The notes: generated by a model from the sequence alone, not told the origin. DNA of 64,000 bases from a virus (IMGVR_UViG_3300045988_176028), one strand, 5' to 3'; counted from the first letter of the stretch, positions 7,437-60,854 are shown. Numbers and translations are program-made.

Positions 7437-7732
7437 CCCTACCAATAACTCGAAAATGGTTTGACATGATTCTTTCCGGCGAGAAGACGGAAGAATACCG
7501 AGAAGTCAAACCCTACTACGATTCTCGCTTCCGCCGACTGTTCGACATGGACGAGTCGAATAATCCAACAGGATTGGACGAGCAGCCAATACTATTCCGC
7601 AACGGATACTCCCATACAAGTCCGAGCTTCACCGCCATCTGCACGCTCTCTAAAGGAGAGGGACGTACCGAATGGGGAGCCGAACCACATAAACGGTATT
7701 GGATATTAAACATCCACCGAATCCAAAAATAG
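7430..7732 (+). CDS. ASCH domain protein
   Basis: 100 aa. ITRKWFDMILSGEKTEEYRE...LFRNGY matches the ASCH (PUA-like) N-terminal signature. Overlaps the ARH stop by 7 nt. Confidence 0.6.
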   Translation: MLTLPITRKWFDMILSGEKTEEYREVKPYYDSRFRRLFDMDESNNPTGLDEQPILFRNGYSHTSPSFTAICTLSKGEGRTEWGAEPHKRYWILNIHRIQK

Positions 7733-7742
7733 GTTTTTACAC

Positions 7743-7787
7743 CCTTTCGGAGTATGTTTTAGCTAAAAAGAAACACACTCCGAAAGG
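7743..7787 (+). promoter_or_regulatory. RBS-occluding hairpin upstream of the NERD gene
   Basis: Perfect 11-bp inverted repeat CCTTTCGGAGT (7743-7753) / ACTCCGAAAGG (7777-7787) with a 23-nt loop. The right arm overlaps the AAAGGAAA RBS of GTG 7798. Confidence 0.4.
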
Positions 7788-7797
7788 AAACCTAACC

Positions 7798-9006: not shown

Positions 9007-9084
9007 GCTGTTTTTGGGCGCGGGTTGTTTTCTTCTCGCGCCTTTTTTGTTTTTGTTGTGTTCAGCGTGTCTTCTCACTTTCGA

Positions 9085-9106
9085 TGATATACTGGGATTG
9101 TTCACA
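9085..9106 (+). promoter_or_regulatory. repeated promoter motif, copy P2
   Basis: TGaTATACTgggattGTTCACA followed by AAGGAGG and ATG 9122. Confidence 0.6.
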
Positions 9107-9121
9107 CAAAGGAGGTTGGAA

Positions 9122-19858: not shown

Positions 19859-19909
19859 TTTTCTTTGAAGGTCTTTAACATAGAAAGAAAAAATACGGAA
19901 AGAGGATAC

Positions 19910-22900
19910 ATGCGTAAACCTATCGCCCTGCTTGCGGCAGGTTCGATGATGCTCATGCCGCTATTGGGGGCAACGAGTGTCGTGCTGACACCCGTATCGG
20001 AGGCTTATGCCGAAACCGCCGATAGCACCGCAAGCGACTATCCGGAAGGTGTCACAGCCTATCTGGACGGTACACGGCTAGCGAGCTTCGACCCCTCCGG
20101 AAACGGAGTATATGACGCGACGGGACAAACTGTGGAACTGTCCGGTGTGCCCGACGATTGGACGGTGCAATGGAGAAGCATGGTCAATGGAATCACCAAC
20201 AAGGATTCCATCATGTACATCCTGTCCAACGGTTCCACCACCTATCGTTACTGGTTCGATGGGGCTGACGGCGCGGTTCATACCGTCGAAGAGCTTCACG
20301 GCATGACAATCACTTTGAACGGTCAGGCTGTGGACGGCGACATCACCAAGGGATTCACCATCCACAACGTGACCGCCAGCGACATGAAGGGATATGAGAA
20401 CACCCCATACGGTTGGGTGCTCGACGGTGATTCCGAAGACGACCACTACACGTACACCGCCCATCCAGAGGATTCGGACACGCCAAGCGTCCAATACACG
20501 TTCATGTATGACGACACCCGACCCCACGACAGCATCAATTCGTTGAGGAACCTGAAAGCGTATCTGACCGTTGACGGCAGCGCCGTGAAAGGATTCGACT
20601 ACACGCTCGCCAACACCGACACCATCGCCATTCCAATGAACACCGACGTGCGTCTGGAAGGCGTACCGGACGGCTGGAAAGTTGACTACAACAATCCTTC
20701 CACCGGGAAACTGAACCGCGTATACACGCTGACCGGCCCCTGTGGGGACACGTTCACCTACATCTTCCATCCGACTTCGGATTACAAAGGATACTATTAC
20801 ATCGACCAGCTCCAATACGTCCGGGCATTCGCTGACGGGGAACTGGTTGACGGATTCGACTACAAGGGAGGCGCATGGAGTTTCCCTGAAACCACCAAGA
20901 ACGTCGAAATCGCAAACGTACCAGACGACTGGAACACTCAACGTACCGTTAATGGCAACATCATCACCTACGTGGTATCCAGTCCGAACAATTCCGTCTC
21001 TGTCACCTACGTGTTCAACATCGCCAAACATCAGGCAAGTCTGGACGAACTGGCGAATGTGAAAGCCATCGTAGGCGGCAACTATGTTTCCGGATTCAAC
21101 CCGAAACAGTCCGGTATCTACGAATACGAAGACGGTCAAGGAATCGCCATCGTCAACGTGCCGTCCGGATGGACTCAGACCACAACCGACGGTGACGGAT
21201 ATAAGGTGTATACGTTGACCAGTGGAGACCTTTCGGTGTCCTACCGTTTCAACAAGCATGTGAAAACCTATTCGGTGGACGAGCTTGCCAAAGTGTCAGC
21301 TTCTACCGACGACGGCGTGGTTCAGGATTTTAAGCCGATGGAGTCCGGCACCTACACCATTGGAGAGCACGCTACCGTGTGGATTACCGGCGTGCCCGAC
21401 GGTTGGGATACCAAATCGTCCGACAATGATATGACCTACACGGTGACTAGTCCCGACGGGAAAATCAAAGTCGTCTACACGTTCAAACATGCGAAGCACC
21501 AGTATTCCGCTTCCGAATTGAAGAACGTCACCGCAAAACTCCCCAACGGAGACTACCTCAACGGCTTCGACCCGGTCTCCGGTGGTGAATTCACCGTACC
21601 GATGGGAACCAAGAACGTGACCATCGGTCATATTCCGAACGGGTGGAACCTCACCAAGAACAATGGACTGTCCTACACGCTAACCAGCAATGATGGGGAA
21701 GTGTCCGTCTCCTATAAGTTCCATGCGAAGAACGGCCATACGGTAGTCTTCGACACTGATGGAGGAACCACTGTCGAATCCCAAACCGTCGAGGATGGGG
21801 GAACTATCACACCACCCGACGACTATCCGTCCAAGACCGGCTACCGTTTTAAAGGCTGGTATAAGGATGGTGTCCCATACGATTTCACACAACCCGTCTA
21901 TGATGATGCGGTAATCACAGCCAAGTGGACGGTAAACACTTACGAAGTGTATTTCGACGCCGGAGCCAGTGACGACTGGTATCCTATGCAGACCATCGCA
22001 TATGGCGATAAGGTCGTCAAGCCGGTTGACCCGACTTTGGACGGTTACGATTTCGCCGGATGGCTGTTGGATGGCAAAGTGTACTCGTTCGACACTCCTG
22101 TCACCGCCGACATGACCTTGACCGCGTCTTGGAAGACCGCGCAGGTGAAGACGCATACGGTAACTTTCACCGGTGCGGGAGACGATTTCATCCAAACCGT
22201 GGCGGATGGTTCCTCGGCCACTGTTCCAACGGTTCCTTCCAAGAAAGGCTACACGTTCGACGGATGGTATTCCGGAGACTCCCTGTACGATTTCACCACG
22301 CCCGTTACGGATGATTTGACTGTGGAAGCCCATTGGACGAAGAACACGTACACGGTCAGCTTCGACTCCAATGGCGGAAGCGACGTGGACTCCCAGCAGG
22401 TGGAATACAAGGATACGGTGTCCCAGCCGGACAATCCGACATTGGACGGTTATACATTCCAAGGTTGGACTCTTGACGGCGACCCGTATGACTTCAACAC
22501 TCCAGTCACCTCCAGCATCACGTTGAAGGCACTATGGTCTAAGAACACGCCAGTAGCCAAAAAACATACGGTCACATTCGACAGTAGCGAGGGAAGCAAG
22601 GTCGATAGCCAAACCGTCAAGGAAGGCGACCCCGTGTCCAAGCCTGACAATCCAACCCGTGAAGGATACACGTTCAACGGTTGGCTGTTGGGCGGAGACC
22701 CGTATGATTTCACCACTCCCGTCATGCAGGATTTGACGTTGACGGCCTCTTGGACGAAGAACAAGAGCACGTACACCGTGAAGTTCGATTTGAATGGGGG
22801 AGATGGCAATATCGCAGACCAGAAGGTCAAGGAAGGCTCCACCATCGACCGTCCGGCCAATCCGACCCGTGAAGGATACACGTTCATGGGATGGCAGTAT

Positions 22901-25555
22901 GAGGATTCCGACTGGAACTTCCTGAACACCGTCGCATCCAACATGACATTGACGGCGCAATGGAAGCGCAACGAGGTCAAGAAGTATACGGTCGCTTTCG
23001 ACACTGCGGACGGCACCAGCATCGACCCGCAGACCATCAGGGATGGTGGCAAGGTTTCCAAGCCGGATGACCCGACCCGTGAGGGCTACGAGTTCAAGGG
23101 ATGGACTCTGAACGGCGTTGACTACGATTTCACCGCTCCAGTGAAAGCCGACCTTGTCCTGACAGCCGTATGGACTCCCGTCAAGCCGAAGACCTACACC
23201 ATCACGTTCGACACCGATGGAGGAACCGTAGTCCCCTCCCAGACGGTGAAGGACAAGGGAACGGCGACCGAACCTACCGCCCCAACCAAGACCGGTTACG
23301 AGTTCAAGGGTTGGCTGTTGGATGGGAAAACGTATGATTTCACCACGCCCGTCACCAAGGATGTGACATTGAAAGCCAAGTGGGAGAAGACGAAAGTCGA
23401 ATCCTACACGGTGGCGTTCAATTCAGCGGAAGGAAGTGAGGTGGCGTCCCAAACGGTCGAACAAGGCAAGACCGCCGTCAAACCTGACGACCCGACCCGT
23501 GAAGGCTACACATTCCTCGGCTGGTATGCGGGAGACGCCGCATACGATTGGGATACTCCGGTCACAGGCAACCTCATTCTGACCGCACACTGGCAGAAGG
23601 ACGAGCAACCCCAGCCGAAGACCTACACGGTCACGTTCGACTATCAGAACGGCAGTCCCTCCGATACTCGAACAGTGTCCGAGGGGAACACCGTCTCCCC
23701 GCCGGAAAATCCGGTGCGAGACGGTTACGACTTCCAAGGATGGGTTGCTATCGACGGTTCCGAATTCGATTTCGAACAGCCGATTACCTCTGACACTCTG
23801 GTGAGCGCCAAGTGGAAGAAGCATGAAGACCCGAAGCCGGTCATGCACACCGTCACGTTCAACTCGAACGGAGGCACGAGCATCGACCCGCAGACGGTTC
23901 AGGACGGGTTGACCGTCCGCCGTCCGGCAGACCCGGTGAAGAACGATTATGTGTTCGACGGATGGTATCTTGACAACGACCAGTATGATTTCAACAAGCC
24001 AGTCACCGGTGACATCACGCTGACCGCAATCTACCATCGCAAACCGATACCACAGCCGAACACGTACACCGTGCGTTTCGACACCGGTGAGGGAAGCAAG
24101 GTTGACCCGCAGACCATCATTGAAGGCAAGACCGTCATCCGTCCGGCAGACCCGAGCATGGACGGTTACGACTTCCAAGGATGGCTGTTGGACGGCAAGG
24201 ATTATGATTGGAACACTCCAATCACCGGCGACATGACTCTGACCGCATCGTGGAAGAAGCATGAGGAGCCGAAGCCCGTCACCCATACGGTCAGCTTCTA
24301 CACCGATGGCGGGAACACGGTCGCACAGCAGACCGTGAACGACGGTGAGACCGTCACGGTACCGGATACGCCAACCAAGAACGGATACACGTTCTCAGGG
24401 TGGACGCTGAACGGCGAACCATACGATTTCAACCTTCCCGTCACAGCCGACATCACCTTGAAGGCCACATGGGTTGAAAACCAGAAGCCCCAGCCGAAAC
24501 GCCACACGGTCACATTCGACACGACCGGAGGGTCTGAAATCGGCCAGCAGACCGTCGATGAGGGGGAGAAAGCCATCCAACCCGCAAACCCAACCCGTGA
24601 AGGATACGACTTCCAAGGCTGGTTGCTGAACGGACAAGCCTATGATTGGAACACTCCAATCACCGGCGACATCACCCTCACCGCATCGTGGACTGAGAAA
24701 GCCCCGACCCTATTCACGGTCGCGTTCAATACGGGCGGCGCTTCCAACATCCCATCTCAAAAAGTCAAGGAAGGTGATAAGGCCGCACGTCCGACCGACC
24801 CGAAGCGTACCGGATACACTTTCACCGGATGGCAGTTGAACGGCAAGGACTACGATTGGAACACTCCAATCACCACGGATATCATTCTGACCGCCACATG
24901 GCAGAAGAACGAAACTCCGAAACCGGTCTTCTACACCGTCAAATTCGACACCGGCAACGGTTCGAAGATTGACCTGCAAACCATTCAACAGGGAGGAAAG
25001 GTCAAGAAGCCCGCAGACCCGACCCTGAACAGTTACAAGTTCATCGGATGGCAGTTGGATGGCAAGGACTACGATTTCAACACTGCGGTATCCAAGGATA
25101 TGACTTTGACCGCAGTGTGGGAAGCCAATACCCTGCCCCCGACCGTCAAGAAGCATACCGTGACAGTGACCTTGTATGACGGCAAGACCGAACGTTATGA
25201 GGTCAAGGATGGTGAGAAGCTGACACTTCCATCCAATCCAACCCGTGACGGATACGTGTTCGACGGTTTCATTGACAAGGACGGCAACGTCTACGACATG
25301 AGCAAGCCCGTGGTCAAAGACCTGACGTTGACCTGCGTGTGGAAGAAGGCCAACGGCGTCTCCTCCGACAAGGACAAGGAGATTGCCGACGCATCCACCA
25401 ATGGGACGGTTGGTAATGGCGAACAGAATTCTGGCTCCCAGAATCCTCTAGCCAGCACTGGCGCTCCAATCTACGGAATGGTCATCGCGGCCATCATCGC
25501 CGGACTCGGCGGCATTGGAATACTGCTCGCCCGGCTATGTAGCCGAAACGAGTAA
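19910..25555 (+). CDS. LAxTG (LASTG) cell-wall-anchored protein with 17 Flg_new repeats
   Basis: ATG 19910 after a GAAAGAGGA RBS gives the signal peptide MRKPIALLAAGSMMLMPLLGATSVVLTPVSEAYA. Seven ~90-aa repeats carry VP(D/S/N)GW. Seventeen ~75-aa repeats follow (x(Y/H)TVTFDxxGG...GYxFxGWxxxGxxYDFxTPVTxDxTLTAxW). C-terminal LASTG (25448-25462), TM helix and charged tail. Confidence 0.9.
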   Translation: MRKPIALLAAGSMMLMPLLGATSVVLTPVSEAYAETADSTASDYPEGVTAYLDGTRLASFDPSGNGVYDATGQTVELSGVPDDWTVQWRSMVNGITNKDSIMYILSNGSTTYRYWFDGADGAVHTVEELHGMTITLNGQAVDGDITKGFTIHNVTASDMKGYENTPYGWVLDGDSEDDHYTYTAHPEDSDTPSVQYTFMYDDTRPHDSINSLRNLKAYLTVDGSAVKGFDYTLANTDTIAIPMNTDVRLEGVPDGWKVDYNNPSTGKLNRVYTLTGPCGDTFTYIFHPTSDYKGYYYIDQLQYVRAFADGELVDGFDYKGGAWSFPETTKNVEIANVPDDWNTQRTVNGNIITYVVSSPNNSVSVTYVFNIAKHQASLDELANVKAIVGGNYVSGFNPKQSGIYEYEDGQGIAIVNVPSGWTQTTTDGDGYKVYTLTSGDLSVSYRFNKHVKTYSVDELAKVSASTDDGVVQDFKPMESGTYTIGEHATVWITGVPDGWDTKSSDNDMTYTVTSPDGKIKVVYTFKHAKHQYSASELKNVTAKLPNGDYLNGFDPVSGGEFTVPMGTKNVTIGHIPNGWNLTKNNGLSYTLTSNDGEVSVSYKFHAKNGHTVVFDTDGGTTVESQTVEDGGTITPPDDYPSKTGYRFKGWYKDGVPYDFTQPVYDDAVITAKWTVNTYEVYFDAGASDDWYPMQTIAYGDKVVKPVDPTLDGYDFAGWLLDGKVYSFDTPVTADMTLTASWKTAQVKTHTVTFTGAGDDFIQTVADGSSATVPTVPSKKGYTFDGWYSGDSLYDFTTPVTDDLTVEAHWTKNTYTVSFDSNGGSDVDSQQVEYKDTVSQPDNPTLDGYTFQGWTLDGDPYDFNTPVTSSITLKALWSKNTPVAKKHTVTFDSSEGSKVDSQTVKEGDPVSKPDNPTREGYTFNGWLLGGDPYDFTTPVMQDLTLTASWTKNKSTYTVKFDLNGGDGNIADQKVKEGSTIDRPANPTREGYTFMGWQYEDSDWNFLNTVASNMTLTAQWKRNEVKKYTVAFDTADGTSIDPQTIRDGGKVSKPDDPTREGYEFKGWTLNGVDYDFTAPVKADLVLTAVWTPVKPKTYTITFDTDGGTVVPSQTVKDKGTATEPTAPTKTGYEFKGWLLDGKTYDFTTPVTKDVTLKAKWEKTKVESYTVAFNSAEGSEVASQTVEQGKTAVKPDDPTREGYTFLGWYAGDAAYDWDTPVTGNLILTAHWQKDEQPQPKTYTVTFDYQNGSPSDTRTVSEGNTVSPPENPVRDGYDFQGWVAIDGSEFDFEQPITSDTLVSAKWKKHEDPKPVMHTVTFNSNGGTSIDPQTVQDGLTVRRPADPVKNDYVFDGWYLDNDQYDFNKPVTGDITLTAIYHRKPIPQPNTYTVRFDTGEGSKVDPQTIIEGKTVIRPADPSMDGYDFQGWLLDGKDYDWNTPITGDMTLTASWKKHEEPKPVTHTVSFYTDGGNTVAQQTVNDGETVTVPDTPTKNGYTFSGWTLNGEPYDFNLPVTADITLKATWVENQKPQPKRHTVTFDTTGGSEIGQQTVDEGEKAIQPANPTREGYDFQGWLLNGQAYDWNTPITGDITLTASWTEKAPTLFTVAFNTGGASNIPSQKVKEGDKAARPTDPKRTGYTFTGWQLNGKDYDWNTPITTDIILTATWQKNETPKPVFYTVKFDTGNGSKIDLQTIQQGGKVKKPADPTLNSYKFIGWQLDGKDYDFNTAVSKDMTLTAVWEANTLPPTVKKHTVTVTLYDGKTERYEVKDGEKLTLPSNPTRDGYVFDGFIDKDGNVYDMSKPVVKDLTLTCVWKKANGVSSDKDKEIADASTNGTVGNGEQNSGSQNPLASTGAPIYGMVIAAIIAGLGGIGILLARLCSRNE
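21733..25345 (+). repeat. 17 x ~225-bp in-frame coding tandem repeat (Flg_new type)
   Basis: Counted from the translated protein: 17 units, each ending LTA.W or a variant. Confidence 0.85.
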
Positions 25556-33949: not shown

Positions 33950-34200
33950 CCTTTGGTCTCATATATAATGTTGACTTCCTCACGGGGTTGAAATCCCGTG
34001 ATTCCTGTTGCCGGTTGGACGTGTCTTTCTTAATGTTTTTAATGGAAGAGATTCCGACCGGTATTGCAGGGGTTTGAGTTTCATCGACGTTGCTCCCCAC
34101 TGGTTTTCACCAGTGTGGAAGCTTGTTGTCTCCACTCTTCGGCATCGTCCATGCCGTTCGTTCCTAACGCGCGGTCGAGAATGTTCTTGGACGCGTTCAC
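33950..34200 (-). ncRNA. candidate TnpB omega RNA (reRNA), copy 1
   Basis: On the minus strand, about 75 nt after the tnpB stop: GGAATCACGGGATTTCAACCCCGTGAGGAAGTCAAC (33970-34005). It has the same layout as copy 2 with compensatory stem changes. The 5' boundary is a guess. The putative guide would begin ATTATATATGAGACCAAAGG. Confidence 0.4.
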
Positions 34201-35499
34201 GTCGGCGTTCGTCTCATGCCCGCAATTGTGGCAGTGGAACACCGCTTGGCTTTCACGGTTGTTCTTGCCGCAGTATCCGCAGACGTTGCAAATGCGTGAC
34301 GTGTCATAGGCGGGTACCTGAACGAGTCGGGTTCCCGCAAGCTTGGTTTTGTATTCGAGACAATGCAGGATGCCAGTCCAACGGTTGGCGAGGACGCTAC
34401 GGTTCAAACCGCTTTTCCTCTTCCGCCCGTTGTGCAGATAATGTCCCGGATTGTCGGGGTCTGGTTTCGGCCGGACGCTTCGGCTCATGGCCTTCACGTT
34501 CAACCGTTCCATGGCGATGAAATCGTATTCCCGGACGAGCGTGGTGGTCGTCTTGGCTATCCAATCGTCCTTGCGATTGTCTATCCGACGTTGGATGCGC
34601 CGCATGGCTTGGAGGGTGCGCTTGCGGCTTTTGGACGTGAATTTGGCGTTCCTGCCGCCACGCTTCTCGTTCGTCCTGTCCTGTCGGGCAAGCTTGCGTT
34701 GCAGACGCTTATACTCGTCCATCTCTTTGACGGACGGTTGGGGAATGTCGAGGAAAATGTTATCGGAGGTGGCGAGGGTATGCACGCAACCCCTATCCAA
34801 GCCGACCATCATGCCCGTATCGGTTCGGCTGATGGGGAGTGGACTATTGGTGAACACGAGTGTCCTGTTAGTCCAGTTCACCGCCACACTCGTATATTCA
34901 CGAACGGGTTGACTCACCCGCACATGAATGGCGATACGCCAACGAGCCTCGTTCTCACCCTCACGACGATACTGTCTCGGCACACTGCCAGTGATGACGA
35001 CCACACCGGTACGCTTGCCCGTCCGACGATACAAGGCGTTACCGGTCTTCGACTGGTTACGCCAGCACACGAAATACTGAGGAGCCTTATGGCGGGAACG
35101 GAACCCCGGAACCCGACCACCATTGGTCTTCTTCCGTTTCAATCCGGCGAACCAACCCGTGTTCTCGACACGTTCACATGAGGAGAGGATAGGCGAGGGA
35201 ATGCACGCCAGCCAAAGACAATCCAATCGCGCCTGACTGTCCTTGACGGCGGGCTTCACATCCGCGCCACCCAAAGGCACATCCACCCAAATACGCTCAC
35301 GGGTTTCAACATCCTCCACAAGCCTACGCTGGGGACGATGCGCCCGATGCTGGTTGTACCGGCTTCTCCACCCGTCGCACAGCCAGTCCATGATACGTTC
35401 CGGATTACGAGTCCACATACGATTCCCGTAAGAGTCCAAGCCGAGGAACACGCTGCACCCCGTATGCCGGACTTTCAGGATTCGTACTTTCTGACTCAT
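34081..35499 (-). CDS. tnpB: TnpB-like RNA-guided endonuclease (IS200/IS605-family OrfB), copy 1
   Basis: RuvC-I GLDRGCVHTLA, RuvC-II FIAMERLNVKAM, zinc finger CNVCGYCG...FHCHNCGHE, RuvC-III NADVNASKNI. No tnpA nearby. Confidence 0.85.
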   Translation of the reverse strand: MSQKVRILKVRHTGCSVFLGLDSYGNRMWTRNPERIMDWLCDGWRSRYNQHRAHRPQRRLVEDVETRERIWVDVPLGGADVKPAVKDSQARLDCLWLACIPSPILSSCERVENTGWFAGLKRKKTNGGRVPGFRSRHKAPQYFVCWRNQSKTGNALYRRTGKRTGVVVITGSVPRQYRREGENEARWRIAIHVRVSQPVREYTSVAVNWTNRTLVFTNSPLPISRTDTGMMVGLDRGCVHTLATSDNIFLDIPQPSVKEMDEYKRLQRKLARQDRTNEKRGGRNAKFTSKSRKRTLQAMRRIQRRIDNRKDDWIAKTTTTLVREYDFIAMERLNVKAMSRSVRPKPDPDNPGHYLHNGRKRKSGLNRSVLANRWTGILHCLEYKTKLAGTRLVQVPAYDTSRICNVCGYCGKNNRESQAVFHCHNCGHETNADVNASKNILDRALGTNGMDDAEEWRQQASTLVKTSGEQRR

Positions 35500-36059: not shown

Positions 36060-36965
36060 TCAGAACGGGTTGCCGTCCGGCTTGCCGCTGGTCTTGGTCG
36101 GCTGAGTCGGGGACTCCAGCATCGGAACCCCGCCAATAGCGCGTTGCTTCGATTCCAACGACTTCCGGCACGGATACACCTTCAGCCCCTCATCGACGGC
36201 CTCTACATGCAGTTCCGGCCAATTCTGCCGAACCATTTCCAACGCTTTCTTGAAACGTTCCTTGAATCTGCGGAGTGGAGTGTTCGACGCGTCGAACTGT
36301 ATTTGCAATCCGTTCCAAGGTATGAGAACCGGTTTAGAGATGTAATATGTTCTGCGGGCGAGCCACTGGTAGATGTCCAACGCTCTGGATGATTTCCCGA
36401 GATTCATCACTATCTCTCGGTTTAAAGGAACGGGATTCTCGTTGAGGATTCCCCACATAAGTTCGGAGAATCGAATATACGAACCTTCCTTGTATTCGTC
36501 GGAATTTCTGTCGAAGCAGATGTGAGTGCGGTCGGCCACCAGAACATTGATGGCATCATGGACAGTTCTGCCCTGTTCGTCCTTGAACCAATTGGTCACT
36601 TGAAAGACAGTGCTCCCCAGATTCTCCAACATGCGGGTCACCTGCTCCCGTTGTCCATTGGCCGCGATTCCCGTGTTCTTGCAGAACGAATTAAATGTTT
36701 CGTCCAAATGGATTGTCCTGTTTTCGAAATCAACCATCGGGGACACCTCTTTTATGAGGGTTTGGGCATACAGAAGGAATAGACGGGGGATTTTTCCGTA
36801 AGCCCACTGCCCTTTCCTCGGGGTCGTCGTTATGGACACGATTCCGTTGCTCCGGTTCAGATAAGGTACATCAGGCTCCTCCACTGGAAGCAGGGAGACC
36901 ACTGATGAGAGGGTGGCCGCATAGGTTATTGTCTTCTTGCTGGGGTTGATGATATCCTTGTTCAT
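36060..36965 (-). CDS. repA: plasmid replication initiator, RepA (RepA_C-type) family
   Basis: WAYGKIPRLFLLYAQTLIKE...IHLDETFNSFCKNTGI and VPLNREIVMNLGKSSRALDIYQWLARRTYYISKPVLIPWNGLQIQFDA....LRRFKERFKKALEMV...P.L match the conserved blocks of plasmid-encoded RepA proteins. Iterons lie immediately upstream. Confidence 0.75.
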   Translation of the reverse strand: MNKDIINPSKKTITYAATLSSVVSLLPVEEPDVPYLNRSNGIVSITTTPRKGQWAYGKIPRLFLLYAQTLIKEVSPMVDFENRTIHLDETFNSFCKNTGIAANGQREQVTRMLENLGSTVFQVTNWFKDEQGRTVHDAINVLVADRTHICFDRNSDEYKEGSYIRFSELMWGILNENPVPLNREIVMNLGKSSRALDIYQWLARRTYYISKPVLIPWNGLQIQFDASNTPLRRFKERFKKALEMVRQNWPELHVEAVDEGLKVYPCRKSLESKQRAIGGVPMLESPTQPTKTSGKPDGNPF

Positions 36966-39256: not shown

Positions 39257-39362
39257 TGCTTCATGTCTTGACCGTATTGGCGGCGCAAGCCCTGTTTTTT
39301 TAAGACTGGGGTGAGTCGCCACTTCTTTGATTAATCACTGTTTCCGTGGTAAGGTTTTCAGT

Positions 39363-40820
39363 ATGAGCCAGAAGGTACGAATCATCAAAGTCAGGCATGC
39401 GGGCGCATCCGTGTACCTTGGCGACGATTCATGCCGCAACCACTGCTGGACGCGCAATCCCGAACGCATCATGGACTGGCTGTGCGACGGGTGGAGAAGC
39501 CGTTTCAACCAACATCGGGAGCATAGGACAATCCGCCGCTACATGGAGGACATGGAATCCCATGAACGCATGTGGGTGGACGTCCCGTTGGGCGGCGCGA
39601 CCGTCGGGGAACCTTTCAAGGACAGCGAGGCTCGAATCCGGTGTTCTTGGCTCGCATGCATCCCCTCCGCTATTCTCGCCAGTCCCATGCGCGTGGAGAA
39701 TTCGGAATGGTATGCCGCGTTGAAGCGCAAGAAAATCAATGGCGGTCGTGTCCCGGGATTCAAGTCCCGCAAACGCAGCCCCCAGTATTTCGTATGCTGG
39801 CGCAACCAGAACAAGACCGGCAACGCCATCTACCATCAGGTGTCACGCAAGCGCGGCGTGGTCGTCATCACCGGAACCGTGAAAAAGGAATTCCGCAAGC
39901 CGGACGAAACGGGATGCCGTTGGACGCTCTCCATCCACGTGCGCGTCAGCCAACCCATCAGGGATTATACGAGTGTGGCGGTGAATTGGACGGAACGTAC
40001 TCTGGCGTTCACCAACGAACCGTCGCCCATCCGACGGAATACCACCGGCAAGCAGACCGGTATCGACCGTGGCTGCGTCCACACGTTGGCCTTGTCGAAT
40101 GGAACCATGCTAGACATGCCGCAACCGTCCGAACGGGAGAGAAAAGAGTATCTGCGATTGCAACGCAAACTCTCCCGACAGGACAGAACCAACGAGAAGC
40201 GTGGCGGCAAAACCGCGAAATTCCAGTCGAAACGGCGTATGCTCACGTTGAAGCGTATGAACTCGTTACGTCGCCGTATCAACAATCGTAAGGACGATTG
40301 GGTGGCGAAAACCACGACACAGCTTGTCGAAGACTACGACCTTATAGCCTTGGAAGCGTTGAAGACCCGGCAGATGACGCGTAGGCCAAAGCCGAAGCAG
40401 GACCCCAACCATCAGGGGTGCTACCTGCATAATAGTGCAACATCCAAAGCCGGATTGAACCGTAGCATCCTCAACAACCGTTGGACGGATATTCAGAACA
40501 AACTCGAATACAAGACCCGACTCGCCGGAACCCAGCTCATACTGGTTGACCCGGCCTACACGTCCCAAACCTGCAACCGTTGCGGCCATGTCGCATTGGA
40601 GAACCGTGAGAGTCAAGCGGTCTTCCAATGCGTTAACTGCGGGAACAAGGATAATGCGGACGTGAACGCGGCTAAGAACATTCTCAACCGCGCGATACAT
40701 ACAACCGGCATGGACGATGCCGAGGGCGTGGAGGAACACGCATCCTATGGAACCCATGTTCCACAGGAGAGTTCCGGTGAAACGCCAACCCCTGCTACAC
40801 GTATGGGAAGACTTCTCTAA
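39363..40820 (+). CDS. tnpB: TnpB-like RNA-guided endonuclease, copy 2
   Basis: MSQKVRIIKVRHAGASVYLG... is collinear with copy 1 and roughly two-thirds identical by eye. Motifs: GIDRGCVHTLA, LIALEALKTRQM, CNRCGHV...FQCVNCGNK, NADVNAAKNI. Confidence 0.85.
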   Translation: MSQKVRIIKVRHAGASVYLGDDSCRNHCWTRNPERIMDWLCDGWRSRFNQHREHRTIRRYMEDMESHERMWVDVPLGGATVGEPFKDSEARIRCSWLACIPSAILASPMRVENSEWYAALKRKKINGGRVPGFKSRKRSPQYFVCWRNQNKTGNAIYHQVSRKRGVVVITGTVKKEFRKPDETGCRWTLSIHVRVSQPIRDYTSVAVNWTERTLAFTNEPSPIRRNTTGKQTGIDRGCVHTLALSNGTMLDMPQPSERERKEYLRLQRKLSRQDRTNEKRGGKTAKFQSKRRMLTLKRMNSLRRRINNRKDDWVAKTTTQLVEDYDLIALEALKTRQMTRRPKPKQDPNHQGCYLHNSATSKAGLNRSILNNRWTDIQNKLEYKTRLAGTQLILVDPAYTSQTCNRCGHVALENRESQAVFQCVNCGNKDNADVNAAKNILNRAIHTTGMDDAEGVEEHASYGTHVPQESSGETPTPATRMGRLL

Positions 40821-51435: not shown

Positions 51436-51651
51436 GTGAGCGTGCGAAGCGAAACATTGGGCGAGGTCATTGAATGGCTCGGAGACGAGGCGGACAGGGA
51501 ATGGGAGCGCGCCAAAGACGGCCTGAGCGACGGATACGACGGGTTCGACGCCTACACGCGGGCAATCCAGCACTGTCAGGACATGCTCATGGACGATACG
51601 GCGGAACACGGAAAGCCCGATGAAGGTGGAAAAAATGAACAAGCAGAATGA
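51436..51651 (+). CDS. hypothetical small acidic protein
   Basis: 71-aa ORF with a GTG start. Confidence 0.4.
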   Translation: MSVRSETLGEVIEWLGDEADREWERAKDGLSDGYDGFDAYTRAIQHCQDMLMDDTAEHGKPDEGGKNEQAE

Positions 51652-51823
51652 GACCGTTCTATTGGAACACTTGGCCGACACGTTCGAAACCAAGCTCCGC
51701 GAGGCCGACCGGTCTATCGGAACCGACATTCCGAACCAGTACCGGGAGGGATGGATGGACGCGTTCGGATGGGCGGCCACCTACTGCCGCCTATTGGCGG
51801 AACGGAAGTGGACCCATGCTTGA
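51635..51823 (+). CDS. hypothetical small protein
   Basis: ATG 51635 after a GAAGGTGGA RBS. 62 aa. Confidence 0.4.
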   Translation: MNKQNETVLLEHLADTFETKLREADRSIGTDIPNQYREGWMDAFGWAATYCRLLAERKWTHA

Positions 51824-52343
51824 CTTCTCCAAATGGGAGGCAATGTGGGACGCCTACAACCGGATGGGCGAAGCCGTGTCCGGCAGTCCCGCAAGCATAT
51901 GCCAAGACATCGGCGTGACATTGATGATGGTCTTCGGTTTCGTCGGGCTCATCGCGGTGGCCGTCATCAGTGGCGTGGGCGACGACCCCGAGAAAAGCCC
52001 GTTCTTCCGCTTGACCACGGCGATAGCCGTCATAGGCGGTGTGCTGGCGCTCACATCGTTCGTCATGCCATCTCACAACGACGCCCACGTATCCGAACCA
52101 CCCGCGCTCTCCACGCAAATCGAGAGAACGTGGGGGCTGGACGAAATGGGCGATTGCAAAAACACGAGCCACGGGCTTACCGACAGCCCAAGCCTACCCA
52201 AGTCGAGCCTTGACGACGGCGACTGGAAGTGCGTCGCCTACACCGACAGTCAACGCACCGAACTGACCGTCCACATCAAAGGAAACAAGGTCGGCCTGTA
52301 CAAGGCAGACGGCAAGGCGTTGAAACTAGTAGGAAAGGACTAG
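51816..52343 (+). CDS. small two-TM membrane protein, paralog family member B1
   Basis: ATG 51816 inside the longer track ORF. 175 aa. Motifs: LDFSKWEAMWDAYN, two TM helices, GDC...WKC, and GNKVGLYKADGKALK at the end. Confidence 0.65.
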   Translation: MLDFSKWEAMWDAYNRMGEAVSGSPASICQDIGVTLMMVFGFVGLIAVAVISGVGDDPEKSPFFRLTTAIAVIGGVLALTSFVMPSHNDAHVSEPPALSTQIERTWGLDEMGDCKNTSHGLTDSPSLPKSSLDDGDWKCVAYTDSQRTELTVHIKGNKVGLYKADGKALKLVGKD

Positions 52344-52802
52344 ATGGTGAAGGACTTCTCTGCTTGGGCCAATGCGTGGAACGACTACAGCAGGTCGGAT
52401 GTCAATTATCTCGTTTTCGTCGTGGGTGGCACGGCGGCTCTCGTCGTCCTTGCTCTTTCCCTCTTATTGGAAAGCAACGGCACCGTTCTGACCTTTTTCT
52501 GCGGTTTAGCCGTCATCGTAACCCTAGCTGGCATATGGGTTGTGAACTTCTACCCGATTTGGATGGAGGATTCCCCTGAGCCAGCCGTCTTCACCACTCA
52601 GGTCGAGAAGGAGTTCGGCGTGCATGATTTCTCGTGCCCACCCGACGTCATGTCCGTCAAGGACGCTCTGCCCGATGCGGGCGCCTACCAGTGCACCATC
52701 ACCGACGGCAAGGACGATTCGACAGTAAGGGACGTGAGGCTCATCGTGACGGCGGACAACAAGGTCGGACTCTACGACGCTGACGGAAAGGCATTGAAAT
52801 GA
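52344..52802 (+). CDS. small two-TM membrane protein, paralog family member B2
   Basis: 152 aa. Motifs: KDFSAWANAWNDY, two TM helices, SC...YQC, and DNKVGLYDADGKALK at the end. Confidence 0.7.
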   Translation: MVKDFSAWANAWNDYSRSDVNYLVFVVGGTAALVVLALSLLLESNGTVLTFFCGLAVIVTLAGIWVVNFYPIWMEDSPEPAVFTTQVEKEFGVHDFSCPPDVMSVKDALPDAGAYQCTITDGKDDSTVRDVRLIVTADNKVGLYDADGKALK

Positions 52803-55745: not shown

Positions 55746-55837
55746 CTTCCTCCAAGCCGGTCGATGTGCGAAAAACGGATTGCCTCCGGCTTTAGATGTC
55801 GAAAGCAATCCGATAACCCTCTTCCTATCGGGAAGGA

Positions 55838-58800
55838 TTAATGCTTCCTACCCGTCTTTTGCGGCCTCAACAAGACGAGGCCGACAACAAGCGACAGACT
55901 GGAGATGGCGGCAAGAACCAACAACAATCGGCCTCCCGTAAACGGCATGGATGCTATGGGAGTTTCCAAGTACGGCATCACAACGCGGATGATGCCGCAA
56001 TTCTCGTACACATCCTCATATACCGGGCTTGCCATCTGAGAGGGTGATGGGAAGTCGTTCAGATTGATATAAGCGCCTTTCATGCCGGAAGTATCCGAAA
56101 TCGGGTCTGCGGCACTGTTGGTCGCTTTTGTCGAGCCTTTGGCGTTCTTGGCCGTGACCTTCAATTTCAACCAAGAATCTCTTCTGCCGGGAGAGAACCG
56201 AACCTGATATCCGCTACCGGCGGGAATGCCGACGATACGGTAGGTTCCGTCTTTGCCCGTCGTGTCGGCCAATGGTTTTCCATCGTATCCCAAAACGGGG
56301 GTTCCGTTGGAATCGGTCAGAGTGACGGTCACATTGGAGGCGAGCGCGTCGGTATCCTCGCGGATGCCGTTTCCGTCCTTGTCGTACCATACGATGCCTG
56401 AAACGACTCGTTGGACTACGGTGACGTCGGCGTCGGTTTTGTTGTATCCGTCTCCCCAACGGATGCTGTACAGGTCGGCGGGACGGTTGTTGGAAGGTTG
56501 GATGGTGATGTCGAACATGAGGCTTGAGCCTCCCGGCAGTGGTTTGTCTCCCACCCATGCCCAAGCTGTTGGATGCAGGTTTTGCGGGATGGCGGCTATG
56601 CCTGTCGTACTGTCGAACGGTAGTGTCTTCCAATCTTTTACGTCAGTGGTTTTGATGTTGCTTGGGTCTGTGGTCAGGTATTTGCTGTCGGTGGAGTAGA
56701 CAAGATGCCCGTCTCCAAGTTGGGAGCCGTTTCGGGGGCTAATGTGGATGCCTGCCAAAACCCAGTCGCCATGATAGGAGCTGAGTGTGTTGGCGGTGTT
56801 CGGCATGATGGCCGTGGCTATCGGATTGGACAACGGTGTTTCGAGATTGTTGGTTTTGATACTCTTCCAATGCAATGCCGAGTTGACCTCATTTACCAAC
56901 GGGTCAGCCTTGATAGCCAAAGTGGTCAGTTCCAAACGACTGATTTTGATGGTGTACTCGGAATGTGTCAAATCCATTTTCGGTCTGACTGGAGAACGAT
57001 AAGTGGAAACGGAAACCTTGTTCGTCAACTGTTCCGCGTTAACCACATCATTGTCCGGGTCGGTTGCGTCACCGATGCTGGTCGAATAGTGGATTGTATA
57101 CTGTTTGGACGTGTCGATATTGTCCAAATGCCAGACAAGAGTGGTGGTTCCGTCTGCGTTGAGTGTGGCGTTCGGTTCGATTCTCGTGCCATTGGCTACG
57201 CTTCCCTGACTTGGAGTGTTCTCCTTGTAGTCTCCGCCCAAATATGCGGTCGATGGAAGATAATGGAGTTTTGACGGGAGTGTGTCGGTGACCGTCATAT
57301 CCGTTTTGGTATCGACGGTATCCCGCCCATACAGGTTGGATGCCATGTTTAAATCCAGTTTCCAGTCCACGTAGCGTTGTCCGTTGTCGATGTCGTAGGT
57401 TTGTTTGGAGCCTTTGTTCCCGTCGCTTTGGTCTGTGCTTTTGGAGACTTGGGCGATTTCCGCCACGATGTGGAGGCTGTCACCGTAATGCCTGTCGGCT
57501 GTGTCTCCGCCCACATATCCTTGGACGTCATCCCATTTTGCCTTCTGATATGGGGTGCTGTCCACTCGTCCGGTCGGAGCGACTTGTTTGACGAGTTCTG
57601 CCGGGTCAAGTTTGTTTTTGCTAATCCAATTGGCCCAATCCTTATTGGATGCGTTGTCGGCGTCGAGACCGGCTTTTGCGGCCAAGTCTTTACGTGTCCA
57701 CATGAGGCTTTGCACAGTATATTGGGCGGTCTTGTTGATGATTTCACGTCCGGTTTTGACTTGGACGTCCAGTCCGAAAAAATCACGTCCAATACCTTCG
57801 TTGCCTTCCATCCAAGACGAGTTATATGGTGCGGCATTGTATGACGTGGCGAGAATGGCTACGATTTCGCCGTGTTTCTTTGCCTCGCTGATGGAATTGT
57901 AATAGTTCAGGTAGCCGATTCCAGCTTTTGCCTGTTCAGTGTCGGAAGACCATGCTTTCCCGTCTTTTTTGACACCATAAGCCAAGGTGCTTTCGGAGAA
58001 GATGTTCTTTCCATCACCCAAACTCGCACGATTCCATGTGGAAGCATTCTCATAGGGTTCAAGCACTGTTGAATCGATTTTCATGAGTCGGGTTCTGATG
58101 ACGGGCAGATTGGTTTTGTTTTGAGTGTAGCTTATGCGGGAGGCCAGCATGACTTTTTGGCCGCGCACGGCAATGTCGGAACCATCGTGAACACTGGAAC
58201 CTTTTTGCTGGAACAGTATACAGGAGGAATCCCTTGTCTGAGTGTCCTGCCATTCCCATCCGGCGCACCCATACTCTATACCTTGATTATATTCGGAGGC
58301 CATTCCGGACACGTAAAGAGGAATACTCACCCCAGTCTCATCATCTGAGATTATCGACTGATTGGAAGAGTCCGACGGCGCCGATTTGGCTTTAATGCCA
58401 CTGACACTGGATGCTTGAAGGTTCATATCCCAAACATCCTGTTGAAGGTTCAGGTCGCTTCCGTACTGGTCGGCCAGATTCTTATTGTTGATTTTAGTGG
58501 GATTCACGAGGTCGATGCCTGCGGACGCCCAATTGAGGATGCCGTTCTGCTGGTCTTTGTTGTTGGGGTTGTAATATTGGTCTAGATGGGATACGGTGAG
58601 ATGCAGGATGATGTAGCCGTTTTTGGTTTCCTGCGTCATTTTCCATTCGCTGGCATTGTCGTTTTTCTTTCGGGAGTTGAAAGTTTCGGCTTCTTTCGTA
58701 TTGCTTCTGTCCGACGGGTATTTGTGGAATATTGCCATCCAGCTGTTGCTGCCGTTGGCGATGCTCCAAGCTAATGGCTGCAAAGAATTCGGCTGGTTGG

Positions 58801-59572
58801 CTATAGGCGTGGAAGCGCCTTGCCTCCTCCACTGGTTTGAGATTTTAACGTCGAACGTGACCGGCTCATTAGTGGCCTCCAAGCCTTTGACGCCTTTTGC
58901 ATGGTCGGTGGAGGTGTTCGCCACGTTGATGGTCAGATGGGAGAGGACTCCGGTCACTTTGCCCGCTGTCTTGTTTATCGCATCATCATCCTTGGATTCT
59001 CCGAAATCGTAGGTGCCGGATTGGATTCGTTTCAAGCTCGCCAATTCGATGTTCCATCGTGGCGCGGCGCTAACGGTGACGGTTTCCAACTGTTTGGTGA
59101 CTGCCTCGCTATCAGTATTGTGTTCCATACTGGCTTGGACAGTCGGATGAATCTTGGTTCCATTAGGTGCGCCATACACGTTGATGGGCAGATTGACGGT
59201 AGCCGCGCCCGGAACGACGGTCGGATTATCCTTTGTCCCATTGATGTGACGCCAGCATGTCAACGTCTGGTATTTAGCACCTTTGACATCCTCATATCCT
59301 ACCTTGTATCCGTATCCTGCGGCTGTGTCCATCCAAAGCATTTCCTTGGTGGAGAACTCAGCCACGCTTGTATTGAATGTCATGGAGAATTTGAATTTGA
59401 TTCTGGCGTCCTTGTAGTAATCTTTACTGTTCTTTGACGCCATGGTGTAGGAGATGGTGTAGTTCAAGGAATCGTAGGAGCGGACGATGCTGTTATCGAT
59501 GCTTGAATCGTCTCCGGGATTGTCGTCTTTGTCGAATGGTGCTGTTCCCGTGGTCTTCGAGACTGTGGACAC
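55838..59572 (-). CDS. large LPXTG-like (MPFTG) cell-wall-anchored adhesin, body without signal peptide
   Basis: 1244-aa ORF. SdrD-B/CnaB-like module (VSGIVWYDKDGNGIREDTD...VTLTDSNGTPV...TTGKDGTYRIVGIPAGSGYQVRF). C-terminal MPFTGG, TM helix and a basic tail. This frame is open up to 59719 and, upstream of the GTG at 59572, encodes GVSSANAEETPATQ..., the end of a signal peptide. Confidence 0.8.
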   Translation of the reverse strand: MSTVSKTTGTAPFDKDDNPGDDSSIDNSIVRSYDSLNYTISYTMASKNSKDYYKDARIKFKFSMTFNTSVAEFSTKEMLWMDTAAGYGYKVGYEDVKGAKYQTLTCWRHINGTKDNPTVVPGAATVNLPINVYGAPNGTKIHPTVQASMEHNTDSEAVTKQLETVTVSAAPRWNIELASLKRIQSGTYDFGESKDDDAINKTAGKVTGVLSHLTINVANTSTDHAKGVKGLEATNEPVTFDVKISNQWRRQGASTPIANQPNSLQPLAWSIANGSNSWMAIFHKYPSDRSNTKEAETFNSRKKNDNASEWKMTQETKNGYIILHLTVSHLDQYYNPNNKDQQNGILNWASAGIDLVNPTKINNKNLADQYGSDLNLQQDVWDMNLQASSVSGIKAKSAPSDSSNQSIISDDETGVSIPLYVSGMASEYNQGIEYGCAGWEWQDTQTRDSSCILFQQKGSSVHDGSDIAVRGQKVMLASRISYTQNKTNLPVIRTRLMKIDSTVLEPYENASTWNRASLGDGKNIFSESTLAYGVKKDGKAWSSDTEQAKAGIGYLNYYNSISEAKKHGEIVAILATSYNAAPYNSSWMEGNEGIGRDFFGLDVQVKTGREIINKTAQYTVQSLMWTRKDLAAKAGLDADNASNKDWANWISKNKLDPAELVKQVAPTGRVDSTPYQKAKWDDVQGYVGGDTADRHYGDSLHIVAEIAQVSKSTDQSDGNKGSKQTYDIDNGQRYVDWKLDLNMASNLYGRDTVDTKTDMTVTDTLPSKLHYLPSTAYLGGDYKENTPSQGSVANGTRIEPNATLNADGTTTLVWHLDNIDTSKQYTIHYSTSIGDATDPDNDVVNAEQLTNKVSVSTYRSPVRPKMDLTHSEYTIKISRLELTTLAIKADPLVNEVNSALHWKSIKTNNLETPLSNPIATAIMPNTANTLSSYHGDWVLAGIHISPRNGSQLGDGHLVYSTDSKYLTTDPSNIKTTDVKDWKTLPFDSTTGIAAIPQNLHPTAWAWVGDKPLPGGSSLMFDITIQPSNNRPADLYSIRWGDGYNKTDADVTVVQRVVSGIVWYDKDGNGIREDTDALASNVTVTLTDSNGTPVLGYDGKPLADTTGKDGTYRIVGIPAGSGYQVRFSPGRRDSWLKLKVTAKNAKGSTKATNSAADPISDTSGMKGAYINLNDFPSPSQMASPVYEDVYENCGIIRVVMPYLETPIASMPFTGGRLLLVLAAISSLSLVVGLVLLRPQKTGRKH

Positions 59573-59657
59573 GTCGGCGATTTTCGCATCATCGCCTGTA
59601 AGCGAATCATGTATGGTCGCGTCGCTTGGCGGGTTCCAGCTTTGCTGGGAAACCCCA

Positions 59658-59783
59658 TTATCGGTAGATTGTGTGGCGGGGGTTTCTTCGGCATTGGCCG
59701 AGGAGACACCCCCCCCCCGCTAGGATTAGCGTTGCGGCGATAAAGGCGGACAGCGTTGCTCCCGCTCTATGAAGCATTCTCAT
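59658..59783 (-). CDS. 41-aa leader ORF encoding the adhesin signal peptide (out of frame with the body)
   Basis: GGAG RBS, then ATG 59783: MRMLHRAGATLSAFIAATLILAGGG... It enters the poly-G tract and, with 10 G, terminates at 59658. With 9 G it fuses in frame to 55838..59572. Confidence 0.7.
   Translation of the reverse strand: MRMLHRAGATLSAFIAATLILAGGGCLLGQCRRNPRHTIYR
59709..59718 (-). repeat. homopolymeric G10 tract (C10 on the plus strand)
   Basis: Counted directly: aggagaca[cccccccccc]gctagg. The end coordinate of track ORF 59487..59723 confirms the count. I noticed no other G/C run of this length. Confidence 0.95.
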
Positions 59784-59996
59784 ACCACTTACTCCAATCG
59801 GATTCCTTAGATGTTTCCTTTCCTAAAATACCTTGAAATGTCAGTTAAAAACCGTTCTGCGGGGATTTTGGGACAGGAAACCGAAAGACCCGAATGCAGT
59901 GGTGCGGCATTCTTCCCCGTCCGATAGAGGCGGGCGAACCTCGGCAAAATCAGCTGAAAATCCCATCCACGGCGTCGAAGACGCCGGAGACGCGCG

Positions 59997-60854
59997 TCAG
60001 ACGGCTACGGGAGCTTTGATTGACGGCCACGGGGTGTAGTCGATGAGATGGAACATGTCCGGCTTGTAGTCGAACAGGCTATCCGCCTTGTCGATTTCCA
60101 TATGCGGCCACGGGCGTGGCTCGCGCGACAATTGTTCGCACACTTGTTCCAGATGGTTCAAATACACGTGCGTGTCGCCGCCGACCCAAATGAACCGTCC
60201 CGGCTCCAATCCGGCCTGTTGGGACATCATCATGGTCAGCAGCGAGTAGGACGCGATGTTGAACGGCACGCCCAAGAACATGTCCGCCGAACGCTGATAC
60301 AGTTGGCAGTCCAAAAACTTGTTGCCGCGCACGTGGAATTGGAACAGGGCGTGGCATGGCGGTAATGCCATTTCGTCCAATTCTCCCGCGTTCCATGCGG
60401 ATACGATGATTCGACGGCTGGACGGGTTATGTCGGATAAGGTCGAGCGCGTTCGACAATTGGTCTACCGTGGTGCCGTCGGTTTTATGCCATGAACGCCA
60501 TTGGACGGGATACCCTTTGCCAATTGTTCCGTCCGGCAACACCCATTCATCCCAAATGTGGACGTTCTGCTTTTGCAGAGTGTTGACCTTGTTGTCTCCG
60601 GCAATGAACCACAACAGTTCCGCGATGATGCCACGCAGGAACACTTTTTTCGTGGTCACGAGCGGGAAACCGTCTTGCAGGTTGAATTCCATACGCGTGC
60701 CAAACATGGACAACGTTCCCACTCCGGTACGGTCGTGAGTCAGCTCGCCTTCCAGTACGACTTGTCGTAACAGTCTCTCATATGGCTGGTCGCGTTCCAA
60801 TGTTCCGGCAACATAATTTTTGGCTTCTTCAGGTGTCATACGTTTTCCTTTCAT
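59997..60854 (-). CDS. thyA: thymidylate synthase
   Basis: [44 protein letters not shown] and [20 protein letters not shown] are canonical ThyA motifs. Confidence 0.9.

Follow-up and report, generated by a model that had tools for sequence, protein, structure and literature searches.

A length-variable G tract in the signal-peptide region of a megaplasmid-like Bifidobacterium element: a probable slippage ON/OFF switch of a putative adhesin gene

Contingency loci with poly-G or poly-C tracts are carried by mucosal pathogens, for instance in opa, pilC and lgt of Neisseria and in surface genes of Campylobacter and Helicobacter. The closest described systems belong to the genus Bifidobacterium. 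In B. breve UCC2003, an open reading frame (ORF) with a Sec signal and an ORF with an LPXTG motif are split by a tract of 11 G (G11) in bbr_0113 and of 10 G (G10) in bbr_1889 (Penno et al., Sci Rep 2022, PMC9187656). The G tracts undergo replication slippage, and pili are formed once both ORFs are in frame (PMC9187656). Maximum-depth sequencing revealed mixed tract lengths, with 6.5% G9 in a G10 population, and the in-frame length of the pilus genes was enriched in mice (PMC9187656). Tracts of 8-13 G were also described in the pilus clusters of B. longum, B. breve, B. dentium, B. pseudocatenulatum and B. bifidum (PMC9187656). The present analysis deals with a DNA stretch of 64,000 nucleotides (nt) filed as viral in IMG/VR (IMGVR_UViG_3300045988_176028), called here the window, which looks like part of a Bifidobacterium megaplasmid. 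On its minus strand, a G10 run lies within the signal-peptide region of a stand-alone, sortase-type adhesin gene. This run is very probably a hypermutable homopolymer, i.e., a contingency locus, which would switch the gene ON and OFF by slippage.

The locus resembles bbr_0113 and bbr_1889 in several respects. The genus is the same, and in each case a short ORF with a ribosome-binding site (RBS) and a Sec signal is followed by a G tract and by a long ORF which lacks an RBS and a signal of its own and ends in a sortase motif. The tract of bbr_1889 is a G10 with a G9 minority, and the window also has G10. In-frame tracts lead to a surface structure in B. breve, and would do so here. The slippage mechanism itself is not new, as it has been demonstrated in the same genus. 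A preliminary description of the window, made from the sequence, had pointed to G-tract frameshifts in bifidobacterial pilus loci; this was correct, and the loci are experimentally backed (PMC9187656). In contrast to the chromosomal genes of B. breve, the window locus sits on a megaplasmid-like element. Its gene stands alone, outside an operon of pilins and sortase, with convergent genes downstream, and it carries MPFTG in place of LPXTG. Its alleles also vary in the site and the strand of the tract, which is either a poly-G within the signal peptide or a poly-C some 50 codons from the start. B. adolescentis, the species named by one NCBI record for the element, is absent from the table of Penno et al. 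(PMC9187656). The pMP7017 transcriptome paper mentions no such switch on megaplasmids. The classical contingency loci have in common with this locus a 5' intragenic G/C homopolymer of about 8-13 and a stochastic ON/OFF frameshift of a surface protein, but here a plasmid carries the locus, and the host is a Gram-positive commensal of the gut.

The features of the switch region and of the rest of the window are compiled in Table 1. Translation from ATG 59783 gives the peptide MRMLHRAGATLSAFIAATLILAGGG, a predicted signal peptide with the n-region MRMLHR, the h-region AGATLSAFIAATLILAGGG and the c-region VSSANA; the predicted cleavage site, between A-N-A and E, exists in the ON frame only. The hydrophobicity is highest at residues 11-21, with a best 11-residue Kyte-Doolittle mean of 2.46. 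Removing one G in silico (G9) gives a protein of 1314 amino acids (aa), which reads ...LAGGGVSSANA up to the cleavage site and EETPATQ... after it and ends at TAA 55840-55838. G12 gives an in-frame protein of 1315 aa. With G8 or G11, a stop is met after about 105 codons, and G7 and G13 have the same outcome as G10. The anatomy put forward in the preliminary description was reproduced throughout: a well-placed ATG behind a GGAG RBS with a signal peptide, ten G residues with a frame stopping after 41 codons, a frame restored by 9 (or 12) G with an A-x-A cleavage site (ANA before EE), and an annotated large ORF devoid of an export signal.

Table 1 Features of the putative adhesin locus and of other parts of the window (positions counted on the whole stretch)
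Feature	Position	Strand	Details
Shine-Dalgarno-like GGAG	59792..59795	(-)	8 nt 5' of ATG at 59783-59781; direct reading
Signal-peptide coding region	59690..59783	(-)	31 codons in ON frame; G tract inside; translation
Homopolymeric G10 tract, proposed slippage switch	59709..59718	(-)	Codons 23-26; encodes GGG of ...LILAGGG...
OFF-state product	59658..59783	(-)	41-codon ORF: signal peptide and 16 out-of-frame residues, then TAA 59660-59658
Mature adhesin frame	55838..59719	(-)	Opens directly 3' of TAG 59722-59720, at the G tract; joined to signal peptide only at 9 (or 6, or 12) G
Mechanical ORF call of adhesin	55838-59572	(-)	GTG start, 1244 aa
SdrD B-like (Ig-like, CnaB-type) domain	56087..56395	(-)	Pfam PF17210, 33.2 bits vs cutoff 29.7, E = 6.5e-08
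C-terminal sorting signal	55841..55948	(-)	MPFTG (55934-55948), hydrophobic GRLLLVLAAISSLSLVVGLVLL, charged tail RPQKTGRKH
Weak terminator-like hairpin	55810..55831	(-)	Just past stop codon; next genes convergent
Thymidylate synthase	59997-60854	(-)	
Fused polynucleotide kinase (AAA_33)/T4-type RNA ligase 1	61191-62894	(-)	
Metallophosphoesterase	63363-63935	(-)	
RepA_C protein	36060-36965	(-)	35-36% identical to RepA of B. longum/B. breve pMP7017-family megaplasmids
TnpB/IS605-OrfB-like (Cas12f-like TNB domain) gene	34081-35499	(-)	Inverted relative to the next; the two flank the RepA region
TnpB/IS605-OrfB-like (Cas12f-like TNB domain) gene	39327-40820	(+)	
647-aa surface protein	1813-3756	(+)	pAdhesive_15 and Flg_new domains, LATTG
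2700-aa surface protein	11662-19764	(+)	No Pfam match
1896-aa surface protein	19865-25555	(+)	17 Listeria-Bacteroides (Flg_new) repeats, LASTG
Small paralogous proteins	3879-4406, 4403-4876, 51648-52343, 52344-52802	(+)	Shared ...KVGLY(D/K/T)xDGK... ending

The signal-less large ORF could alternatively be expressed alone from GTG 59572, or from ATG 59443, which gene callers choose in relatives, and reach the surface by another route, so that the upstream signal-peptide ORF would be irrelevant. Gene callers do pick such starts, with products of 1201, 1244 and 1260 aa (WP_368093294.1 among them), but no Shine-Dalgarno-like motif was found 5' of either of them. The first 60 residues from both starts contain no hydrophobic segment (best 11-residue Kyte-Doolittle mean 0.26-0.37), and GTG 59572 precedes the conserved domain by only about 5 residues. 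All complete homologues, near or distant, have an N-terminal signal peptide, and Sec export is, as is well established, required for a sortase substrate. Independent expression is thus hardly credible.

The G10 tract is the sole homopolymer of at least 8 nt across the 64-kb window, and a single C6 is the only other G/C run of at least 6. Chance alone would give 0.18 G10 runs in a window of such composition, and one was present in 14 of 100 dinucleotide shuffles. Since the mere presence of a G10 is not improbable, the case leans on the position of the tract and on its length variation in relatives. A two-product switch, in which the OFF frame would encode a lipoprotein, was considered and rejected: the OFF peptide contains a lipobox-like AGGG-C, but the Cys is replaced by Tyr in most relatives, and the likeness is therefore a coincidence.

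In the mechanism proposed here, slipped-strand mispairing at replication would add G residues to the tract or remove them. A tract of 9 G (6 or 12 would do as well) would place the RBS, ATG 59783 and the Sec signal in frame with a mature protein of 1283 residues. This ON protein would be exported and cut after ANA, and MPFTG would presumably tether it to the wall. With 7, 8, 10 or 11 G, translation would end after 41 or about 105 codons, and the large ORF would be left without a usable start or export signal (OFF). At G10, the population represented by the window would be OFF, and a minority of G9/ON cells would be expected. We infer that the slippage happens at replication, that it can be reversed and is frequent within a clone, and that the ON protein is exported, anchored to the wall and active in adhesion.

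The tract was surveyed in assembled sequence from IMG/VR, JGI/ENA metagenomes and Logan assemblies, where 30 distinct contigs of the same allele (93-99% identical) contained it completely. G10 was found in 11 contigs, the window among them, and the in-frame G9 in 9. G7 occurred in 3 contigs, G8 in 2 and G11 in 1. Single contigs carried G8T and a G10 with the following T lost, both in frame, as well as GGAG8 and GGGAG9. Altogether, the tract is in frame in 11 of the 30 contigs, whereas G12 was seen in no relative. With five uninterrupted lengths (G7-G11) and four interrupted or boundary-altered forms, neither a fixed G9 nor a fixed G10 was found, which supports the slipped-strand ON/OFF switch suggested in the preliminary description. 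The tract can differ between contigs that are otherwise identical. L073 (G10) and L074 (G8) have 0/4076 substitutions outside the tract, and L106 (GGAG8) has 0/4075 relative to L107 and L108 (both G10). Among close relatives, contigs with G9 and with G10 are intermingled. Indels were mapped by pairwise BLAST; a multiple alignment of all loci was dropped, as the contigs L008, L025 and L094 diverge past breakpoints. In the good-coverage contigs, the other ~3.9 kb of the coding sequence showed only about 5 indel events, whereas the tract, 10 nt long, changed its state at least 8 times. By our own estimate, this is a roughly 600-fold excess of indels per nucleotide in the tract.

The ORF behind the tract is well preserved. 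Once the tract was normalised, 18 of the 21 full-length copies had an intact ORF of 1313-1315 codons; of the 11 OFF copies in this set, 9 were intact. The ORF is interrupted by a frameshift near 57783 in L019 and L027 and by a deletion of 2 nt in L030. The ratio of nonsynonymous to synonymous substitutions (dN/dS, Nei-Gojobori) was 0.12-0.36 in all comparisons, also between OFF alleles differing at 6-7% of sites. The low dN/dS and the intact normalised ORFs indicate that the ORF is held by purifying selection even though it is often OFF. On these sequence grounds, an intact, selected yet often-OFF ORF is the signature of a contingency gene and not of a decaying pseudogene. Single-base insertions at short T/A runs were observed as well, T6 to T7 at ~57783 in L019 and L027, whose G tracts are already OFF, and A5 to A6 at ~57620 in L008. 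These insertions may be assembly errors, or they may show that copies long OFF are truly decaying.

Several points nevertheless weigh against a functioning switch. Errors in sequencing or assembling a homopolymer could account for part of the length variation among assemblies, and two contigs have a coverage below 3x. In the sublineage of the window, G10 (or GGAG8) was found in 4 of 4 samples, which would also fit a lineage stuck OFF. The second frameshift in three relatives (L019, L027 and L030) means that some decay occurs. MPFTG is not a canonical LPXTG motif, and the NCBIfam LPXTG-anchor models gave no match to the adhesin. Neither a PF04203 sortase nor a pilin was matched by Pfam among the ~45 window ORFs scanned. 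Finally, a consensus scan found no sigma-70-like promoter in the 213-nt spacer upstream of the ATG. The adhesin gene may be co-transcribed with thyA, or may have a promoter of a type outside the consensus scan.

If the first point were decisive, the true tract would be G9, the gene would be intact and the length differences would be sequencing or assembly artefacts. Long G runs are indeed prone to errors, and some of the relatives lie on contigs of very low coverage (1.5-2.6). A further contig of the same allele, L021 (OCHI01011239.1), breaks off within the G tract, of which it contains 10 G or more; disagreement between reads on tract length could make an assembler stop there. Yet identical lengths recur in independent samples of one sublineage, which argues against random assembly error. 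G10 is shared by the window and its 3-substitution relatives L107 and L108, and also by L104 and L105, while G7 is shared by L004, L007 and L094. In addition, G10 was found at 35x coverage in L109, differences of 2-3 nt (G7 and G8 vs G10) exceed typical consensus errors, and a matching pattern is seen at the unrelated poly-C tract of a sister allele (see below). An artefact is hence highly improbable. Because G10 also appears in further independent samples of its sublineage, the G10 of the window is a real OFF state and not a random assembly error.

A non-adaptive explanation would see the tract as a mutational hotspot, which disabled a dispensable plasmid gene and left OFF copies to decay without functional switching. 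It would account for the 19 of 30 copies being out of frame, for a whole window sublineage being OFF and for the additional frameshifts in three relatives. It would also agree with the finding that only 2 of 13 near-full-length members, among those listed for the 1910-member protein cluster of the adhesin, have the 1314-aa form. On the other hand, most tested OFF copies (9/11) are otherwise intact over ~3.9 kb, the low dN/dS holds even between OFF alleles, and ON and OFF copies are interleaved among close relatives. Moreover, poly-G tracts in the signal peptide and poly-C tracts in the linker are kept at 7-10 nt and not purged, although a tractless homologue exists. Decay of a pseudogene is therefore considered improbable as a general explanation, and the contingency switch is preferred.

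The tract could also act through recoding. RNA polymerase slippage on the G10/C10 template, or ribosomal frameshifting, would then yield a constant in-frame fraction from G10 DNA and a constitutive low expression. Long homopolymers can support transcriptional slippage (reviewed by Atkins et al. 2016, as cited in PMC9187656), and a contribution of this kind is compatible with the data. As the main mechanism, recoding appears a shade less probable still than an assembly artefact. The DNA polymorphism alone is enough to explain ON and OFF states, in-frame genomic G9 copies are common (9/30), and the authors of the B. breve study ascribe expression to replication slippage measured on DNA (PMC9187656).

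The protein cluster of the adhesin at 90% identity comprises 1910 member sequences, for which gene calls of 1201, 1244 or 1260 aa without a signal and of 1314 aa with a signal were found. In P0021 and P0022 (1314 aa), the reading is uninterrupted (...GGGISSANAEE). Together with P0002 and P0004, they are homologues with a contiguous signal peptide and 80-98% identity, and the distant homologues P0005-P0009 all begin with a signal peptide. The allele L109, on a 224.7-kb contig of 35x coverage, has the signal-peptide N-terminus MKAMLSTLIAGTLILAGGG, in which ...LILAGGG is kept and the tract is G10.

Two sister alleles, alleles 2 and 3, encode proteins 88% and 80% identical to the window adhesin and have a different 5' end. 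Their homology to the window starts only at 59664, downstream of the G tract, and their signal peptide, MQSSKVRTVFSALLAGMLFLS[S/G]GVSTAYA with ED following the cleavage site, is encoded without a G run. They have instead a poly-C run at codons 48-51 (SWTPPQD). It is a C9 in the 1313-aa forms (ON) and a C7, C8 or C10 in shortened calls, and this variation was seen in contigs only 0-27 substitutions apart over 4.08 kb. The equivalent position of the window reads TGGAACCCGCCAAGC and has no run. The poly-C tract of the sister alleles is a predicted second, independent switch in the same gene. The flank of the poly-C tract of allele 2 had no match in a scan of viral contigs. Within 10-24 kb of each examined locus, the run at the 5' end of the adhesin gene was the only G/C run of at least 7, with two minor exceptions. 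Both tracts precede the first conserved block, TGTAPFDKDDNPG..., and lie in a stretch of low conservation, in which gained or lost Gly or Pro residues are harmless.

The genomic position of the gene differs between alleles. In L098, allele 2 (10001-13942) lies between an ADP-ribosylglycohydrolase gene and the gene of a 2706-aa surface protein, on a sister element syntenic with window positions 1-19.7 kb. At the equivalent site of the window (7725-9749), two unrelated ORFs are found (7699-9006 and 8993-9964). The window's own copy of the adhesin gene, which matches L098 at 55822-59664, is 48 kb away and adjoins thyA. These different sites imply that the adhesin gene has been relocated, or exchanged as a cassette that brought a new 5' end. 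A wider proposal can be made tentatively, with a likelihood that falls somewhat short of even: switchability itself might be a selected trait carried by the mobile element. At least two non-homologous homopolymer switches would have been kept in alleles at different plasmid sites, the switch would have been re-invented repeatedly after replacement of the 5' end, and a widespread megaplasmid would impose bet-hedged adhesion on its commensal host.

The label "adhesin" for the gene product is reasonable, though inferred from models and domain matches. An AlphaFold model of the first 699 ORF residues is mostly beta-sandwich, with medium confidence (predicted local distance difference test, pLDDT, 69; predicted template modelling score, pTM, 0.46). 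The best Foldseek matches were the C123 region of antigen I/II (AgI/II), PrgB, SspB, SdrE/SdrG, FnBPA and CNA, with E values of 1e-12 to 1e-4 and low TM-scores (0.1-0.38). No match to PDB chains was found for the adhesin at the sequence level. The SdrD_B domain and the beta-sandwich fold are common to this protein and to the Ig-fold surface adhesins of Gram-positive bacteria, such as antigen I/II C123, the Ig-like domains of PrgB and the Sdr/Clf/Cna group of microbial surface components recognizing adhesive matrix molecules (MSCRAMMs). A thioester-domain (TED) adhesin was considered, as the motif VQSLMW resembles the TED Gln motif. This candidate was rejected, since the Gln and the candidate Cys are unconserved in distant homologues and Pfam gave no TED match. 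At the C-terminus, MPFTG is followed by a hydrophobic stretch of 22 residues and then by the charged tail. The Met at position 1 of the motif is atypical; other window proteins have LATTG or LASTG. MPFTG is kept in every allele sampled at the protein level, namely alleles 1-3 and the 1202-aa L109-type protein P0003.

A more remote relative is the "FctA domain-containing protein" (~2577 aa) of pMP7017-family megaplasmids of B. longum and B. breve (e.g., NZ_CP065398.1, WP_212106162.1). Its N-terminal ~1240 residues are 31% identical to the adhesin at 97-98% query coverage. Both are located on Bifidobacterium megaplasmids and share the layout of the signal peptide, ...LFGSGASVVSAAYA with DD after the cleavage site. 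In contrast, the FctA protein is twice the size of the adhesin, has an LAKTG motif and is encoded by a single continuous ORF. In the B. longum megaplasmid, the tract position is encoded as GSG, and no homopolymer of at least 7 is found near the 5' end. The FctA protein is therefore not switchable in this way.

Its gene content suggests that the window is not chromosomal DNA but belongs to a megaplasmid-like element of Bifidobacterium (adolescentis), about 200-225 kb in size and only a distant relation of the pMP7017 family. Besides the RepA_C protein (Table 1), it encodes a Pnk/RNA ligase 83% identical to that of the B. longum megaplasmid NZ_CP084013. Further cargo includes a single-stranded DNA-binding protein (SSB), a Lar restriction-alleviation protein, TnpB-like transposases and CHAP and NlpC/P60 hydrolases. 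Relatives were found on contigs of up to 205-225 kb, and one NCBI protein of the 90% cluster comes from B. adolescentis, on a 217-kb contig. PLSDB yielded no nucleotide-level match to the window, which suggests a different, undeposited megaplasmid lineage. A 20-mer scan of the GTDB species representatives gave only chance matches (Collinsella, Zobellella and others), the element being absent there, and megablast against phage and plasmid collections returned nothing useful. An exact search with the NCBI protein P0011 matched no contig. A jumbo phage origin was hinted at by the thymidylate synthase, the Pnk/RNA ligase, an HNH protein and the filing in IMG/VR. It was rejected, as there was no structural match in PHROGs and a plasmid RepA and megaplasmid cargo were found instead. 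With 1910 members in the adhesin cluster, the element is common in human-gut metagenomes.

If the switch works as proposed, an abundant megaplasmid of human-gut Bifidobacterium toggles a large surface adhesin stochastically. G-tract slippage, so far shown only in chromosomal pilus operons of B. breve, would then also operate on a mobile element, in another species and in an adhesin that is not a pilus protein. There are also consequences for annotation. Pipelines call the gene as a signal-less protein of 1201-1260 aa (e.g., WP_368093294.1) or split it. As a result, predictions of the bifidobacterial surface proteome and strain comparisons miss the adhesin unless tract length is considered. The two alternative tract positions offer a natural experiment on the origin of contingency loci. 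The locus is solid and useful, with an evolutionary twist in its two independently placed switches on a mobile element, and mechanistically unsurprising.

The adhesin gene is located downstream of thyA, and the genes after it are convergent in the window as in relatives. In pilus clusters, the comparable gene comes first, before pilins and a dedicated sortase, an arrangement which the adhesin gene does not show within the window. All relatives retain the phage-like nucleotide/RNA-repair module upstream, which comprises thymidylate synthase, the fused kinase/ligase and the metallophosphoesterase. The module may share a transcript with the adhesin gene; neither a promoter nor a terminator was detected in the 213-nt spacer between them. 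Three other large secreted or sorted surface proteins are encoded in the window, and none of their genes contains a homopolymer tract. The plasmid appears to remodel the surface of its host. The small paralogous proteins with the KVGLY-type ending, for which neither Pfam nor PHROG gave a match, occur as tandem pairs at two distant sites of the window.

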